IMG/VR virus record: IMGVR_UViG_2675903433_000028
Coordinates: 1-19,453 of that record
DNA length: 19,453 bases
Source of the DNA: a virus
Taxonomy: Duplodnaviria; Heunggongvirae; Uroviricota; Caudoviricetes
Strand: one strand, 5' to 3'
In this document: piece after piece, positions 11,559 through 15,465 of the stretch
How positions within the stretch are numbered: position 1 is the stretch's first letter
How the letters are laid out: each line of letters starts with the position of its first letter
The notes under the pieces: generated by a model
What the model saw: only the letters and a program-made list of their open reading frames with translations
Database searches by the model: none
What the model was told of the DNA's origin: nothing
Position numbers and translations under genes: made by a program

Positions 11559-11710
11559 AGTCATTTGTCCATTGAGTGGGAATATTGCCGTCCGGGAGTA
11601 ATATGGTATCATTAAGTTAGAGTAGGTAGTGTAGATGGAATGAGGAGTATCATATGGTTATCACACAATCAGGTTGCTTTGAGTCAGGTTGTTTTGAGTA
11701 AAACAATAAA

Positions 11711-11737
11711 ACGCCCTTTAATGGGCGTATTTTTTTT
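11711..11737. terminator. Intrinsic terminator (bidirectional type) between the tail operon and the AT-rich membrane protein gene
   Basis: acgccc-tttaat-gggcgt is followed by attttttttt on the plus strand and preceded by an A-rich run, giving a U-tract on the minus strand as well. Confidence 0.6.
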
Positions 11738-11747
11738 AGGATTTAAA

Positions 11748-12641
11748 ATGCATTCTTTACAGAAATACATAAAACATAAATATACTCACTTAACTTTTTT
11801 TCTCTCATTACTTTTTTTCATGATATTTGAATCTCGAGAAGATATTATCAAGAAAATATTATCTTTTTCTCTCGATGAAGTTTTACCATTCTTAATGTTT
11901 GCGTTCTTCTCCGCCTTTATCAGCATAACAATAAAGGAAAAGATAGCAAAAAAATACCCAGAAACAAACGATGGGATTACCATTATCGCTTTAATCTTTG
12001 GTGTAACACTATATAGTGTATTTATATTATATTATTTATATGGTGATGTATACCAATCCACAATTGCTTTACTTATAAGTTCTGTGCTACTTGGCTCTGG
12101 GTGGTGGGTTCAGGCTACTGTGAGTAAAGTAGCCGCAAGAAAATCACACACCTTAAATACACTAATGAATCAAAGAAACAGTGAATTATTTCACAAAAAA
12201 GTCTCATCGGTAGCGAATACGTTCGGGCTTAGAAAAACCATAAATGAAATTATTGCCAAACAAAGACTTATCCCAAATGATAAAGATTTAAAAAATAAAA
12301 AGGTCCATGATAAATACATATCAGCAGGTAATGATATGTTCTTCGTTCTTAATTATTATGAGTTTATCTGTTCAGGAATAATAAATGGAGACTTTGATGA
12401 AGATTCAATGAGAGAATGTCTTGGACAAATTGTTCCGGGTCTCGAGGTTAGAGCATTTCATTTTATAAGAATTGCAAGAGAAATTTCAGGGAGTAGCTGC
12501 TTCTGTAATTTTGTTGCTGTTTCAGATAAATGGTCTACTAATGGAGGATCTCTTATTCTCAGACACGAGAAAGGAGAACCTGTGATCAATAACCTGACCC
12601 ATTGCTTTGAAGAAACAGCCTGTTATAACACAACATCTTAA
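11748..12641 (+). CDS. AT-rich membrane protein: N-terminal ~4 transmembrane helices plus ~170-aa soluble C-terminal domain; function unknown (candidate superinfection-exclusion or abortive-infection type moron)
   Basis: The ORF-track ORF begins at 11640 but reads through the terminator hairpin. The ATG at 11748 has an AGGA Shine-Dalgarno 8 nt upstream and is taken as the start (MHSLQKYIKHKYTHLTFFLSLLFFMIF...). Hydrophobic segments are obvious in the first ~130 aa. Composition is visibly AT-rich compared with the tail genes. Confidence 0.6.
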   Translation: MHSLQKYIKHKYTHLTFFLSLLFFMIFESREDIIKKILSFSLDEVLPFLMFAFFSAFISITIKEKIAKKYPETNDGITIIALIFGVTLYSVFILYYLYGDVYQSTIALLISSVLLGSGWWVQATVSKVAARKSHTLNTLMNQRNSELFHKKVSSVANTFGLRKTINEIIAKQRLIPNDKDLKNKKVHDKYISAGNDMFFVLNYYEFICSGIINGDFDEDSMRECLGQIVPGLEVRAFHFIRIAREISGSSCFCNFVAVSDKWSTNGGSLILRHEKGEPVINNLTHCFEETACYNTTS

Positions 12642-12647
12642 TATTTT

Positions 12648-12674
12648 GTAACCCATAATCGCTTTATGGGTTAC
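12648..12674. terminator. Hairpin between convergent genes (9-bp stem), probable terminator
   Basis: gtaacccat-aatcgcttt-atgggttac; the flanking U-tract is only moderate. Confidence 0.4.
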
Positions 12675-12692
12675 GTTAAATTTGCAATAAAA

Positions 12693-13169
12693 TTAATCGC
12701 CGCGCTTTAAGCATCCATCGTTTTTAGCTTGTTGATATAACTTACTTAGCCCAGAAAGAGGAAATGTAGCAATTTTTTCATTATCAACATAAGCATCTAT
12801 CGCATTAGCATTTGAATCTGCTGCATCTTGCCAAAAGGCATACCACCAAGAATCTCCAACCATTGACCCAAGATTGCTAAAAGGGTATTGCTCACCATCT
12901 AGTGTTAATACTATTTTACTCTTGTCAGCATTATACTCTTTTTTATTATTCGACGACCTTAGCAACAGGCCTAAACTACCTGCACTATCTGGTGATCCAT
13001 ACATGAAACCCATATCACATAAAAAACTTATCTTATCACCATTTTGATTATGGATTGTATATTCTCTCCCCCCTCTATCTTCAATTACATTCCATTGTAG
13101 AGGATCAATTTTTGCAAATACTCCTGCTGAAATTAACGATACAAATAATAAAAACCATCTCATATTCAT
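12693..13169 (-). CDS. Secreted/periplasmic protein, 158 aa, with N-terminal signal peptide; function unknown
   Basis: N-terminus MNMRWFLLFVSLISAGVFA-KID resembles a cleavable signal peptide. There is no lipobox Cys and no C-terminal aromatic residue, so it is not an obvious Lom/Ail barrel or lipoprotein. AT-rich. Confidence 0.6.
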   Translation of the reverse strand: MNMRWFLLFVSLISAGVFAKIDPLQWNVIEDRGGREYTIHNQNGDKISFLCDMGFMYGSPDSAGSLGLLLRSSNNKKEYNADKSKIVLTLDGEQYPFSNLGSMVGDSWWYAFWQDAADSNANAIDAYVDNEKIATFPLSGLSKLYQQAKNDGCLKRGD

Positions 13170-13191
13170 TTTTCTCGCTTCTTATCTGTAA

Positions 13192-13542
13192 TTATTCTGC
13201 AATATCATTTGCCCATTGCACGGCAGCAAAATGAGTGCCAAGGCCACTCAGGAAAGCAATTATTCCCAAAACAATACTAGCTGCTGTTGATTCAAACAAA
13301 GCACCAATGCTATAGCCAATAGCTCCCCATACTAAGCTAAAGACAATCATCAATGGTATTGCCAGAAATTTTATTCTTAAACTAAAAATCAGTCCAAGAA
13401 ATGAACCACCAAAGGCCCACCATGATTTAGACATTAAACCTATCAGTATTGACAGAATTCCTATTTCAATAAAGAGAATATTAGATTGCTCTTCATTGAA
13501 TTTCGCATTTGTTACACCTTTACGAACATGTTCAGATGACAT
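13192..13542 (-). CDS. Small inner-membrane protein, 116 aa, 3-4 predicted TM helices; co-transcribed with the downstream secreted protein gene
   Basis: GGAG Shine-Dalgarno before the ATG at 13542. The sequence is largely hydrophobic (ILFIEIGILSILIGL..., FLAIPLMIVFSLVWGAIGYSIGALF..., IVLGIIAFLSGLG). There is a 22-bp gap to the next gene. Confidence 0.6.
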   Translation of the reverse strand: MSSEHVRKGVTNAKFNEEQSNILFIEIGILSILIGLMSKSWWAFGGSFLGLIFSLRIKFLAIPLMIVFSLVWGAIGYSIGALFESTAASIVLGIIAFLSGLGTHFAAVQWANDIAE

Positions 13543-13688: not shown

Positions 13689-13701
13689 ATTGCTCTAATT
13701 A
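13689..13701 (+). promoter_or_regulatory. Copy 1 of a recurring intergenic motif ATTGCTCTAAT(T/A)A
   Basis: attgctctaatta; the same core occurs at 15380-15393 and 17145-17160, always in plus orientation and upstream of a plus-strand gene. Confidence 0.4.
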
Positions 13702-13795
13702 TTTTGTTTTTTTTAGTTTCATATGCTACATTAACTCGCTTGCGTGCTAATGCATTTTCGGTTTATCCTAAACAAGCATCTTAGTAAAACGGATG

Positions 13796-13854
13796 CCGGG
13801 ATTGGAACCCCGGATAATGCAAAAGGCGACACAGACGCCAAAAGCGTCTTTTTT
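13796..13854 (+). ncRNA. Possible small RNA or leader element: hairpin followed by an intrinsic terminator, with no upstream plus-strand ORF
   Basis: Hairpin ccggg-attggaac-cccgg (13796-13813), then agacgc-caaaa-gcgtct + TTTTT (13833-13854). The nearest upstream genes are on the opposite strand. Confidence 0.35.
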
Positions 13855-13903
13855 ATGTCATGCCATCGCACAACCATACGTAGCACATAGCTACGAGATC
13901 AAT

Positions 13904-13979
13904 GGTAGTGCTGGCTGGGCTGCCAAAAGGCAGGCCGGTTCCCTTTTGCGCCGGTAGTTCCAACCCAGTCAGTGCTACC
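13904..13979 (+). promoter_or_regulatory. Long RNA stem-loop in the leader of the antirepressor operon (16-bp stem; plus-strand specific because of three G-U pairs)
   Basis: ggtagtgctggctggg (13904-13919) pairs with cccagtcagtgctacc (13964-13979): 13 Watson-Crick plus 3 G-U pairs on the plus-strand RNA, which would be C-A mismatches on the minus strand. The loop contains an inner hairpin caaaagg/ccttttg. Confidence 0.5.
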
Positions 13980-14039
13980 GCCATTGAGATTGGAACCTCA
14001 CGCGGTAGCTCCTTAAATTAGCAAAAGGAGGCTGCCAAT

Positions 14040-14261
14040 ATGGCTACTATCCCTACCCCAACTCATTCTGAATTCATCTGGCGCTTTTACTCCTGCCAGA
14101 AACGTCACTATCACTTCGTTATTGCACCGACAGAAGATGAGGCCCGCTCTCAGCTTCCTGACGCCCCATGTATTTTCTCTGCCCGTTTTTCCACTGATTC
14201 ACGCAATTCTCTCAGTTACTGGTGCCTCCCTGTTAACGCTTCTGCTCAGGAGGGACTATGA
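14040..14261 (+). CDS. 73-aa hypothetical protein, translationally coupled to the downstream antirepressor
   Basis: Strong Shine-Dalgarno (AAGGAGG) 8 nt upstream of the ATG. The stop overlaps the next start (ATGA at 14258-14261). An anti-Shine-Dalgarno segment ctcctt (14009-14014) can pair with aaggag (14025-14030). Confidence 0.55.
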   Translation: MATIPTPTHSEFIWRFYSCQKRHYHFVIAPTEDEARSQLPDAPCIFSARFSTDSRNSLSYWCLPVNASAQEGL

Positions 14262-15301
14262 GAACGTCATTAGTCACCCGTGAAGAAATGATTGAGGCAA
14301 TTGAACAGCACACAGCCTGTATGCCGACACGGGAGATCCCCGGCGCAATTGCCAACTATTTCATGATAACCAGGCGTTTTTATACCCGAACAGATAAGGC
14401 AGTGATCAACAGGCTACTGATAGCCGAGATCAGGGATTATTTGATTGAACAAGGACGTCTACGTTACGCAACGGTGGCAGCAGAAATGAGAAAGGAGGCA
14501 CATAGAGTGACCGGTAAAAATTTGAATGTTGAGAAACCAGCACCTGTTACGTCAGCTACGCCAACACCAGCCGTGAATGTCATCCCCAACACCGGAGACA
14601 CAATCGACAGCCAAACATTGTTGAAGATGGTCAATGAGGCACGCAAGTTATGTGGAGAACCAGAGGTTAGAAACAATAAATTCATCGAAAAAATACTCGA
14701 TGAACTTGAAGGTGAATTTTACACAAAAAGTGCAAAATCCCATGGCACAAGGGCTGGGCGCTCTTTTGAGGTCATCACCATGACCTACAAACAAGCCTTG
14801 CGAGTCGCCGCGCGCGAGTCAAAAGCGGTCCGCCGTTCGCTGATCGACAAACTGGAAGAATTGCAGCAGGCAAACTCCCCTGCCCCATCGATCCCCCAAA
14901 CATTACCAGAAGCTCTACGCCTGGCTGCCGAGTTGGCAGAACAGAAAATGCAGTTGGAACAACAGCTGGTGGCCGCAGCCCCTAAAGTCGATTTTGCCGA
15001 CCGGGTATCAGCGGCTAATGGAATCCTGATCGGGAACTTTGCAAAGGTTGTTGGGCTTAAGCAAAACGCGTTGTTTGCCTGGTTACGGGAGAACGGCATC
15101 CTGATAGCGTCCGGTGGACGTAAAAATGTGCCGTTCCAGCAATACATCAACGCCGGGTATTTCACGGTGAAAGAAGTGGTGCTGGATGATGAAAATGGCT
15201 ACCAGATACGGCTGACGCCCCAATTAACGGGTAAAGGCCAGCAGTGGTTAACTCGCAAGCTACTTGATGCTGGTTTGTTAAAACCAGTAGCAATAGGTTA
15301 A
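14258..15301 (+). CDS. Phage antirepressor-like protein with C-terminal KilAC/Ant-type domain (347 aa)
   Basis: The C-terminal ~130 aa (PKVDFADRVSAANGILIGNFAKVVGL...GYFTVKEVVLDDENGYQIRLTPQLTGKGQQWLTRKLLDAG) look like KilA-C/antirepressor domains and are clearly paralogous to the C-terminus of the next gene. Confidence 0.65.
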   Translation: MRTSLVTREEMIEAIEQHTACMPTREIPGAIANYFMITRRFYTRTDKAVINRLLIAEIRDYLIEQGRLRYATVAAEMRKEAHRVTGKNLNVEKPAPVTSATPTPAVNVIPNTGDTIDSQTLLKMVNEARKLCGEPEVRNNKFIEKILDELEGEFYTKSAKSHGTRAGRSFEVITMTYKQALRVAARESKAVRRSLIDKLEELQQANSPAPSIPQTLPEALRLAAELAEQKMQLEQQLVAAAPKVDFADRVSAANGILIGNFAKVVGLKQNALFAWLRENGILIASGGRKNVPFQQYINAGYFTVKEVVLDDENGYQIRLTPQLTGKGQQWLTRKLLDAGLLKPVAIG

Positions 15302-15379: not shown

Positions 15380-15393
15380 TTTGCTCTAATAAA
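15380..15393 (+). promoter_or_regulatory. Copy 2 of motif TTGCTCTAAT(T/A)A, about 75 bp upstream of the second antirepressor gene
   Basis: tttgctctaataaa. Confidence 0.4.
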
Positions 15394-15465
15394 TTTCGTT
15401 TTCTAAGTGCAAAGAATCACCATTTCGAGCTGGTGATTGAAGGTTGATGCAAATTTGGAGAAAAA

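Follow-up and report, generated by a model that had tools for sequence, protein, structure and literature searches.

The region at positions 13780-14040 of the window (the whole stretch of 19,453 nucleotides of DNA that we analyzed) is very probably the immI (c4-icd-ant1/ant2) RNA control region of a P1-like plasmid prophage, operating by a known mechanism. The DNA comes from a P1-like phage-plasmid of E. coli. The gene order and the ORF sizes are as in P1 (pmgC, then c4-icd-ant1/ant2, then kilA-repL-rlfA). When we aligned the annotated P1 immI region, the ORF lengths were identical for icd, ant1, kilA, repL, and rlfA, and pmgC is also of P1 length. Every annotated element of P1 immI that we considered (Op51, P51a, P51b, a1, b1, c4, a2, b2, icd, ant1, and ant2) was covered by the alignment. 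E. coli plasmids of about 87-100 kb share the region at 98-99% identity, and the C4/isrK module is found in 303 of 5,426 complete E. coli genomes, with 311 of its 319 locations on plasmids. The original prediction, a small RNA or riboregulatory leader resembling immI of P1, is borne out by this alignment and by the Rfam search that had been proposed as a check, which returned two curated families (isrK at 13776-13854 and C4 at 13898-13985), both above their gathering thresholds. The system is already known, the window carries an uncharacterized allele of P1-type control, and the novelty is low. With both RNAs already in curated families and the mechanism worked out in P1/P7 and Gifsy-1, the value of the region as a discovery is small.

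The RNAs and protein-coding genes are as follows.
13776-13854, plus strand: IsrK-type leader RNA (Rfam RF01394, terminator scan, and fold)
13898-13985, plus strand: C4 antisense RNA gene (Rfam RF01695, fold, and covariation)
14040-14261, plus strand: icd, a cell-division inhibitor of 73 amino acids and the leader cistron of ant (NCBIfam phage_ICD_like; phrog_1426)
14258-15301, plus strand: ant1, an antirepressor of 347 amino acids (Pfam ANT)

The C4 gene matches RF01695 with 76.2 bits (gathering threshold 45) over the full length of the model (positions 1-87), on the plus strand only, and it has the architecture of the family, with a long closing stem round two hairpins. The 16-bp stem that had been singled out in the original prediction as pairing in plus-strand RNA (13904-13919 with 13964-13979, with exactly three G-U pairs) closes the minimum-free-energy structure. 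The folding energy is -45.6 kcal/mol (z -5.3) on the plus strand, where none of 200 shuffles was as good, and -32.7 kcal/mol (z -1.4) on the minus strand. The structure is clearly beyond chance and strand-specific. Among 13 homologues, 95% of the cells were paired, as compared to 35-50% in slid controls; 12 pairs had changed on both sides, and the outer stem was 100% paired.

By homology to the 77-nt c4 RNA of P1, we predict that the mature C4 RNA would span about 13904-13982 (about 79 nt), with the ends carried over from the P1 annotation. Features that are compatible with processing are an acceptor-like stem from G13904 and a GCCA tail at 13980-13983. Citron and Schuster (in 1992) and Hartmann and colleagues (in 1995) are said to have found that the P1 c4 precursor is processed to about 77 nt and that RNase P cuts the 5' end. 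Given the acceptor-like stem and the CCA-like tail, we also considered a remnant of a tRNA or tmRNA, but ARAGORN gave nothing. In RefSeq, the C4 gene is labeled as an "ash family protein" CDS instead of an RNA.

The leader matches the isrK model (RF01394) over its full length and on the plus strand only, with 58.5 bits (gathering threshold 50). It comprises a 5' hairpin (13776-13796), a second hairpin (13796-13813, CCGGG-ATTGGAAC-CCCGG) that carries the a1 site in its 8-nt loop, a single-stranded b1 site, and a terminator. The terminator scan and the fold both identify an intrinsic-terminator-like hairpin at 13833-13849, which is followed by a T-run to 13854; the hairpin and terminator that were first described at 13796-13854 are present and are part of the isrK match. 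C4 begins 44 nt downstream of the leader and ant1 lies further on, and the tandem of isrK and C4 is annotated likewise in Stx2 phage F039. The folding energy of the leader alone is unremarkable (z -1.6). Its three hairpins are kept in nine relatives, with double changes at just two pairs. Because the isrK stems are nearly invariant among the relatives, they receive almost no support from covariation, so that the compensatory changes proposed as a check are found in the C4 stem and hardly at all in the leader.

We also compared the leader to the c4-a1b1 motif (RF03163), which is the P1-type leader. It scored 16.1 bits, which fails the gathering threshold of 46.7, while relatives with the P1 scaffold reach 51-57 bits on this model. 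By sequence, the leader is a member of the isrK family and not of c4-a1b1, although it would work like a c4-a1b1 element. All isrK-type relatives retain the terminator of the leader. In the P1-type leader, the equivalent hairpin and T-run were not called by the terminator scan because the hairpin loop is too long for the scan's criteria, so conservation of a leader terminator applies to isrK-type leaders only.

Upstream of the leader are an operator-like site and putative promoters.
13689-13705, plus strand: C1-repressor operator-like site ATTGCTCTAATTATTTT, the equivalent of P1 Op51/Oc4 by alignment with the annotated P1 Oc4
13704-13732, plus strand: putative C1-controlled promoter TTGTTT-17-TACATT, the equivalent of P1 P51a/P2c4 by the P1 alignment only
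13740-13769, plus strand: putative constitutive promoter TTGCGT-18-TATCCT, the equivalent of P1 P51b/P1c4 by reading of the sequence and by the P1 alignment

The operator-like site agrees with the C1 operator consensus at 15 of 17 positions. There are two such sites in the window (0.11 expected), one before the leader and the other before kilA. The putative C1-controlled promoter has weak hexamers and the putative constitutive promoter is also a weak match; a scan for consensus promoters called neither of them. Transcription from the latter is predicted to start near G13776 (7 nt past the -10 hexamer), which is position 1 of the isrK model. At the corresponding place, Stx2 phage F039 has a stronger equivalent of this promoter (TTGACT-17-TATATT). 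The terminator had originally been described as having no gene upstream of it; the terminator itself stands, and it ends an IsrK-type leader RNA that would come from the putative promoter at about 13740-13769.

Downstream of the RNAs, Icd is 79% identical to the Icd of P1 and Ant1 is 94% identical to the Ant1 of P1. The stop codon of icd overlaps the start codon of ant1 (ATGA, 14258-14261). There is also an in-frame Ant2-like start (GTG at 14507), which is preceded by a Shine-Dalgarno sequence (14492-14498) and has the same 249-nt offset as in P1.

The C4 RNA and its surroundings contain two sets of complementary sites.
13802-13808, plus strand: a1 site TTGGAAC, the upstream copy of a C4 target; perfect complement of a' and the counterpart of the annotated P1 a1
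13819-13826, plus strand: b1 site GCAAAAGG, the upstream copy of a C4 target; perfect complement of b'
13942-13949, plus strand: b' antisense segment CCUUUUGC, which occupies the loop of the second C4 hairpin; P1 has UCACUAAC at this position
13957-13963, plus strand: a' antisense segment GUUCCAA, which is single-stranded in the C4 junction; P1 has CUGUCAA at this position
13990-13996, plus strand: a2 target TTGGAAC, which a small hairpin (UGAG/CUCA, 13985-14000) displays in its loop
14021-14028, plus strand: b2 target GCAAAAGG, which overlaps the icd Shine-Dalgarno sequence (AAGGAGG, 14025-14031)

The Watson-Crick pairing of a' (7 of 7) and b' (8 of 8) with their targets is perfect at a1, b1, a2, and b2. 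Some of these sites had been noticed as repeats in the original prediction. The octamer ATTGGAAC does occur twice in the 19.4-kb window, both times in this region (13801 and 13989), with its complement at 13957-13963, and these are the a1, a2, and a' sites. The four repeats of CAAAAGG type were also confirmed: CAAAAGG is found on the plus strand at 13820, 13924, and 14022, and CAAAAG is in the terminator loop at 13839. What had been missed is their partner CCUUUUGC in the loop of the second C4 hairpin; the minus-strand copy of CAAAAGG at 13942-13948 is the antisense element b'.

We found 14 combinations of a' and b' alleles on three RNA scaffolds among P1, P7, Stx phages, and IMG/VR contigs. 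For 13 of the 14, the combination is mirrored at all four targets (7-8 of 8 and 7 of 7 pairs). For the remaining one (L075), the assembly is broken by Ns and only a2 and b2 could be checked; both match. In other words, a1 varies together with a' and a2 among the relatives, and b1 likewise with b' and b2. The isrK-type scaffold showed 2 x 2 combinations of a and b alleles, and the P1 scaffold 2 x 5 (natural alleles include TTGAGAC and GTCAAAGG). Cognate duplexes average about -19 kcal/mol versus about -11 for non-cognate ones, which is consistent with C4 repressing ant in trans and setting the specificity of immunity. Because its recognition sequences are unlike those of P1 and P7, the element is presumably heteroimmune at immI to either phage. 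The overlap of b2 with the Shine-Dalgarno sequence is present in every scaffold.

Two further pairings involve the sequence just before icd.
14004-14036, plus strand: predicted hairpin sequestering b2 and the Shine-Dalgarno sequence (minimum-free-energy folds)
14002-14009, plus strand: GCGGTAGC, perfectly complementary to the C4 closing stem on its 3' strand (13974-13981)

The hairpin, which was described in the original prediction as able to hide the ribosome binding site, does appear in the minimum-free-energy fold, with GGUAGCUCCUU (14004-14014) paired to AAGGA (14025-14029) and GCUGCC (14031-14036), but it is no more stable than shuffled sequences (z -0.56; 57 of 200 shuffles were as good). 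Close relatives retain it, other isrK-type leaders have different segments opposite the Shine-Dalgarno sequence, and P1 lacks it. With an energy at chance level and no counterpart in P1, it was rejected as a significant structure; it is the weakest element of the region and does not define it. As for GCGGTAGC, it could pair with the C4 stem as an alternative in the unprocessed transcript. Its partner co-varies in other scaffolds (GCGGTGG with CCACCGC). The pairing is also used in the predicted fold of the 285-nt read-through RNA (-112 kcal/mol, z -5.8), in which a1/b1 are paired to a'/b'.

If the region works as P1 and P7 do, then transcription from the P51b-like constitutive promoter and the P51a-like C1-controlled promoter would partly pass the leader terminator, and processing of the precursor would give a C4 RNA about 79 nt long. 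Its b' (in the hairpin loop) and a' (in the junction) would pair in trans with the a2 and b2 sites that immediately precede icd. Because b2 overlaps the Shine-Dalgarno sequence, this pairing would block the translation of icd. Ant would depend on the translation of icd (by coupling), so it would not be made and the C1 repressor would stay active. In P1, ant is linked to icd translation also through Rho-dependent polarity. The a and b sequences would set the specificity of immunity. Work on IsrK of Gifsy-1 suggests an additional step, in which the short terminated leader, or its sequence acting in cis as part of the read-through RNA, would pair with a'/b' and so counteract or tune C4. The published background for these steps is that C4 RNA acts as a repressor of Ant synthesis (PMC8546580, PMC8198154) and that c4 of P1/P7 is a trans-acting determinant of immunity (PMC8546580 and references in it). 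In Gifsy-1, IsrK binds Hfq, pairs with a downstream processed RNA, and activates the translation of a downstream ORF and of the antirepressor; its short form activates downstream translation in trans (PMC4825925).

A tentative extension, which we regard as possible but rather doubtful, is that the terminated leader is an anti-antisense decoy that titrates C4. The switch would then consist of three RNAs (decoy, antisense RNA, and target), with a and b as two independently reassorting digits of an immunity code. If so, the decoy switch would join the P1 picture, in which C4 represses, with the Gifsy-1 picture, in which IsrK activates, and the a/b code would decide which co-resident or superinfecting P1-like elements trigger one another. 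To our knowledge, the two pictures have never been reconciled experimentally, and we know of no established role for a1/b1 in P1.

The leader terminator raises the question of whether C4 acts on transcription, as in P4: it would pair with a1/b1 on the nascent leader, control termination at 13833-13854, and mainly autoregulate read-through into c4-icd-ant instead of blocking translation. We consider this unlikely. The b1 site does end just 7 nt before the terminator stem, the terminator is kept in all of the isrK-type relatives, and the analogy with P4 CI and seqA was raised by the authors of the IsrK study (PMC4825925). But the position of b2 over the Shine-Dalgarno sequence in every scaffold indicates translational control, the downstream RNA, when expressed constitutively, did not behave as a termination factor in Gifsy-1 (PMC4825925), and the hairpin of the P1-type leader misses the criteria of the terminator scan.

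It is quite improbable that the leader acts purely in cis, with a1/b1 paired to a'/b', a local hairpin hiding the Shine-Dalgarno sequence, and alternative folds of one molecule instead of a trans-acting small RNA. The 285-nt read-through RNA is predicted to fold in this way, that fold resembles the translationally inactive "structure A" of Gifsy-1 isrK-orf45 (PMC4825925), and the covariation of the sites fits pairing in cis as well as pairing of C4 with a2/b2 in trans. However, a2/b2 track a'/b' in all 14 allele combinations, which a cis model of a1/b1 has no need of; also, c4 acts in trans in P1/P7 (PMC8546580), as does the short IsrK in Gifsy-1.

Finally, the region might encode a small protein (the 39-amino-acid ORF at 13902-14021, which is the "ash family protein" of RefSeq, or other short ORFs), with the stems being incidental. 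RefSeq carries this CDS in hundreds of plasmids, and for orf45 of Gifsy-1, at the equivalent position, translation and coupling to anrP have been demonstrated (PMC4825925). Nevertheless, we find this highly improbable: the 39-amino-acid ORF matches no model of Pfam or NCBIfam, the P1 sequence has a stop in this frame after 14 codons, the pairing of the stems survives via G-U pairs and double changes (a signature of RNA), and the ORF ends 19 nt before icd, which leaves no coupling to ant. As for a cis-encoded antisense RNA like sar of P22, on the opposite strand across the ribosome binding site of ant, the case for it comes down to the analogy in the original prediction and the antirepressor gene, and we give it practically no credence, as the minus strand has no Rfam match and an unremarkable fold (z -1.4), its sole terminator-like site in the region is the reverse complement of the a1 hairpin (13813-13796) and is explained by the leader, and the complementarity joins sites on the same strand.

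With the region read as immI of a P1-like element, the practical value lies in annotation and typing. P1-like phage-plasmids frequently carry resistance genes, and their a/b alleles could be used to define an immunity type. Also, isrK-type and c4-a1b1-type leaders side by side make a clean system for asking about the function of a1/b1.

Among known systems, immI of P1/P7 shares the position between pmgC and kilA-repL, the order of elements (operator, promoters, a1, b1, c4, a2, b2, icd, and ant1/ant2), b2 over the icd Shine-Dalgarno sequence, and the 4-nt overlap of icd and ant1. The C4 RNAs are built alike: a long stem encloses two hairpins, b' is in a hairpin loop, and a' is at the junction. 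The differences are in the recognition sites (TTGGAAC / GCAAAAGG in the window, TTGACAG / GTTAGTG in P1, and TTAGCAG / GATTGTG in P7), in the leader (isrK type, whereas P1 has the c4-a1b1 type), and in the sim genes of P1, in whose place the window has other ORFs.

The IsrK/STnc1160/orf45-anrP system of Gifsy-1 in Salmonella (RF01394) shares the full-length isrK leader, including its terminator, followed by a C4-class RNA and then an antirepressor gene. Also, the leader is predicted to pair over a long range with the downstream RNA, in a way that resembles the published structure A (PMC4825925). The cistron before the antirepressor differs: in the window it is icd (73 amino acids), with its own Shine-Dalgarno sequence overlapped by b2, whereas the Gifsy-1 cistron, orf45, overlies the C4-like RNA. 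The host elements differ as well, as Gifsy-1 is a lambdoid prophage with the AntQ antiterminator, and the window is from a P1-like plasmid prophage with a C1 repressor. The c4-a1b1 motif (RF03163) is likewise found upstream of C4, with a1 in a hairpin loop and then b1, but the leader in the window has a clear intrinsic terminator.

The CI RNA of satellite phage P4 causes premature transcription termination. Like C4, it is a small RNA processed from the transcript of its own targets, with complementary sites upstream and downstream (seqA and seqC; PMC4825925). Unlike in P4, the downstream site in the window covers the ribosome binding site. In immI of P22, an antisense RNA also keeps the antirepressor off. 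This RNA, sar, is cis-encoded on the opposite strand across the start of ant. Here the analogy drawn in the original prediction does not hold, as the regulator in the window and its target share a strand, with the regulator upstream.

The leader region before icd belongs to two curated RNA families, one of which was discovered in this operon. A search of Rfam, which the original prediction had recommended, gave exactly two matches in the window at gathering thresholds, both on the plus strand and both inside this region: isrK (RF01394; 13776-13854, 58.5 bits versus a gathering score of 50) and the C4 antisense RNA (RF01695; 13898-13985, 76.2 bits versus 45). The surrounding genes are those of P1. 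The ORFs icd, ant1, kilA, repL, and rlfA have exactly the lengths of their counterparts in the annotated P1 record, Icd and Ant1 are 79% and 94% identical to the P1 proteins, and the window shares 98-99% identity with E. coli plasmids of about 87-100 kb (i.e., P1-like plasmid prophages). Given these neighbors and identities, the region is the immI operon's own control region, and the suggestion of "immI-like" control was borne out. In the P1 record there are four annotated target sites (a1 and b1 upstream of C4, a2 and b2 before icd) and a 77-nt c4 RNA; the window has the same layout (a1, b1, c4, a2, b2) with different sequences.

Features of the immI region in the window
13802-13808, plus strand: a1, TTGGAAC, in the 8-nt loop of the leader hairpin
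13819-13826, plus strand: b1, GCAAAAGG, single-stranded
13942-13949, plus strand: b', CCUUUUGC, antisense segment in the loop of the second C4 hairpin
13957-13963, plus strand: a', GUUCCAA, antisense segment at the junction before the C4 closing stem
13990-13996, plus strand: a2, TTGGAAC, in the loop of a small hairpin
14021-14028, plus strand: b2, GCAAAAGG, overlapping the icd Shine-Dalgarno AAGGAGG (14025-14031)
14040-14261, plus strand: icd, 73-aa Icd-like protein
14258-15301, plus strand: ant1, 347-aa Ant antirepressor, its start overlapping the icd stop
Downstream: genes for KilA-N/ANT (266 aa), RepL-like (281 aa), and DUF3800 (RlfA) proteins
Upstream, other strand: PmgC and a tape-measure-sized ORF

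Two C1-operator-like sites (13689-13705 and 15380-15396; 0.11 expected for the 17-bp consensus) are located as Op51 and Op53 are in P1. The second, TTTGCTCTAATAAATTT, has one mismatch and lies upstream of kilA at the P1 Op53/OrepL position, which would agree with the lytic replicon being under C1 control, as it is in P1. Between pmgC and immI, P1 has its sim (superimmunity) genes, whereas the window has three other ORFs (11640-13542): one for a plus-strand 333-aa DUF4760 protein and two on the minus strand (158 and 116 aa) whose only assignment is to PHROG families without a known function.

Every feature that had been noted in the 260-bp stretch is there. The 16-bp stem that had been noticed in the sequence is present (13904-13919 with 13964-13979, with exactly three G-U pairs), and it closes a plus-strand fold of -45.6 kcal/mol (z = -5.3 versus dinucleotide shuffles). 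Folding the reverse complement gives just -32.7 kcal/mol (z = -1.4), so the C4 structure is real and strand-specific. Covariation analysis, another suggested check, supports this secondary structure: across 13 homologues, standard pairs account for 95% of cells, pairing in the 16-bp stem is complete (100%), and changes on both sides are seen at 12 pairs, while slid controls fall to 35-50%. By alignment to the ends of P1 c4, the mature RNA would be 13904-13982. GCCA directly follows the acceptor-like stem, and both features would fit processing by RNase P, which reportedly processes P1 C4.

RefSeq has a 39-aa "ash family protein" CDS over the C4 gene (13902-14021, plus strand; WP_001396852.1, identical translation), a CDS that is annotated in hundreds of E. 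coli plasmids; there was no ncRNA feature over the gene among the RefSeq matches listed. The ORF had no NCBIfam or Pfam match. The equivalent frame in P1 ends after 14 codons. The window's ORF has the position of orf45 in the Salmonella prophage Gifsy-1, which is reported as translated. In one isrK-type scaffold (L003-type loci, e.g., L003, 1059-1240), the ORF from the conserved AUG at the C4 5' end stays open and continues in frame to the icd start codon, while the window's counterpart ends at 14021.

The claimed leader hairpin is also present (13796-13813), as is a G+C-rich hairpin (13833-13849) with six T after it. The leader's shape is kept in nine relatives; its stems are nearly invariant, so covariation tells us little. 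A promoter-like sequence, TTGCGT-18-TATCCT (13740-13769), aligns with P1 P51b and would place the transcription start at isrK model position 1; we only infer this promoter, because it was not among the calls of the consensus promoter scan. Of 5426 complete E. coli genomes, 303 contain the leader sequence.

In modules with the P1 scaffold, C4 is preceded by the Rfam c4-a1b1 motif. In the window, D6, the extra RCS47 module, and the Stx-phage modules, isrK takes the motif's place; the window's leader scored only 16 bits as c4-a1b1. Because either family occurs at the same place depending on the module, they are alternative forms of one a1/b1-bearing leader. The isrK-C4 tandem was already annotated, before an antirepressor-like gene, in the record of an Stx2 phage (F039). 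The P1-like phages JL22, RCS47, 673R5, and D6 have both types, with a single antirepressor module of each in separate locations, and the window has the isrK type at the canonical immI site. In two-module phages (RCS47, D6, and 673R5), c4-a1b1 with C4 is at canonical immI and isrK with C4 is elsewhere, as between pacB and c1 in RCS47 (101816-105431). Some IMG/VR contigs have two or three icd loci.

The octamer ATTGGAAC has only two copies in the window, and both are in the leader region, as predicted. CAAAAGG repeats had been noticed too; three plus-strand copies are there, and a minus-strand copy (13942-13948) had been overlooked. We compared the a and b sites across 80 IMG/VR loci found via the Icd protein, plus P1, P7, and F039; three RNA scaffolds carry 14 different a'/b' combinations. 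In 13 of these, a1 and a2 each complement a' exactly or with a single wobble, and b1 and b2 are complementary to b'. In the other (L075), Ns interrupt the assembly, which limited the check to a2 and b2; both match. The window's scaffold has all four combinations of TTGGAAC or TTGAGAC with GCAAAAGG or GTCAAAGG; the P1 scaffold combines two a alleles with five b alleles, and P1 and P7 are two such combinations. By computed duplex energy, the cognate pairs (the diagonal) are the strongest, averaging -19 kcal/mol versus -11 for non-cognate pairs. Concerted change in three places at once is strong comparative evidence for RNA-RNA recognition among the sites. As far as we could find, no study in the literature describes the window's pair of a/b alleles.

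Folding also predicts the proposed anti-Shine-Dalgarno hairpin (14004-14036), and it is kept in the closest relatives, but its stability is no better than chance (z = -0.56). Other isrK-type leaders use different upstream segments to sequester the Shine-Dalgarno, and in P1 it is not sequestered in this manner. The hairpin may contribute to repression. Separately, GCGGTAGC (14002-14009), 3' of a2, perfectly complements the 3' strand of the C4 closing stem (13974-13981), and the partner positions co-vary in other scaffolds (GCGGTGG with CCACCGC). The predicted fold of the read-through RNA uses this pairing, which may be an alternative structure affecting C4 processing or ribosome-binding-site exposure.

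C4 reportedly pairs with a2/b2 and blocks icd translation, which is said to prevent ant expression via lost coupling and Rho-dependent polarity. Processed C4 is very probably the repressor of icd-ant here, and would act through a2/b2. The role we infer for the leader is more doubtful: in cis or as a short terminated RNA, it might compete for a'/b' and so tune or relieve repression. C4 may also influence termination at 13854 in a P4-like manner. The window fits the P1 picture and that of Gifsy-1 alike. In Gifsy-1, the short form of IsrK pairs with the read-through transcript, turning on translation of the downstream ORF and the antirepressor, and IsrK has a complement in STnc1160, a processed RNA that lies downstream of it (PMC4825925). 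In the predicted fold of the window's 285-nt read-through RNA (z = -5.8), a1/b1 are paired with a'/b' and the Shine-Dalgarno is still in a hairpin, which resembles the published inactive structure of Gifsy-1.
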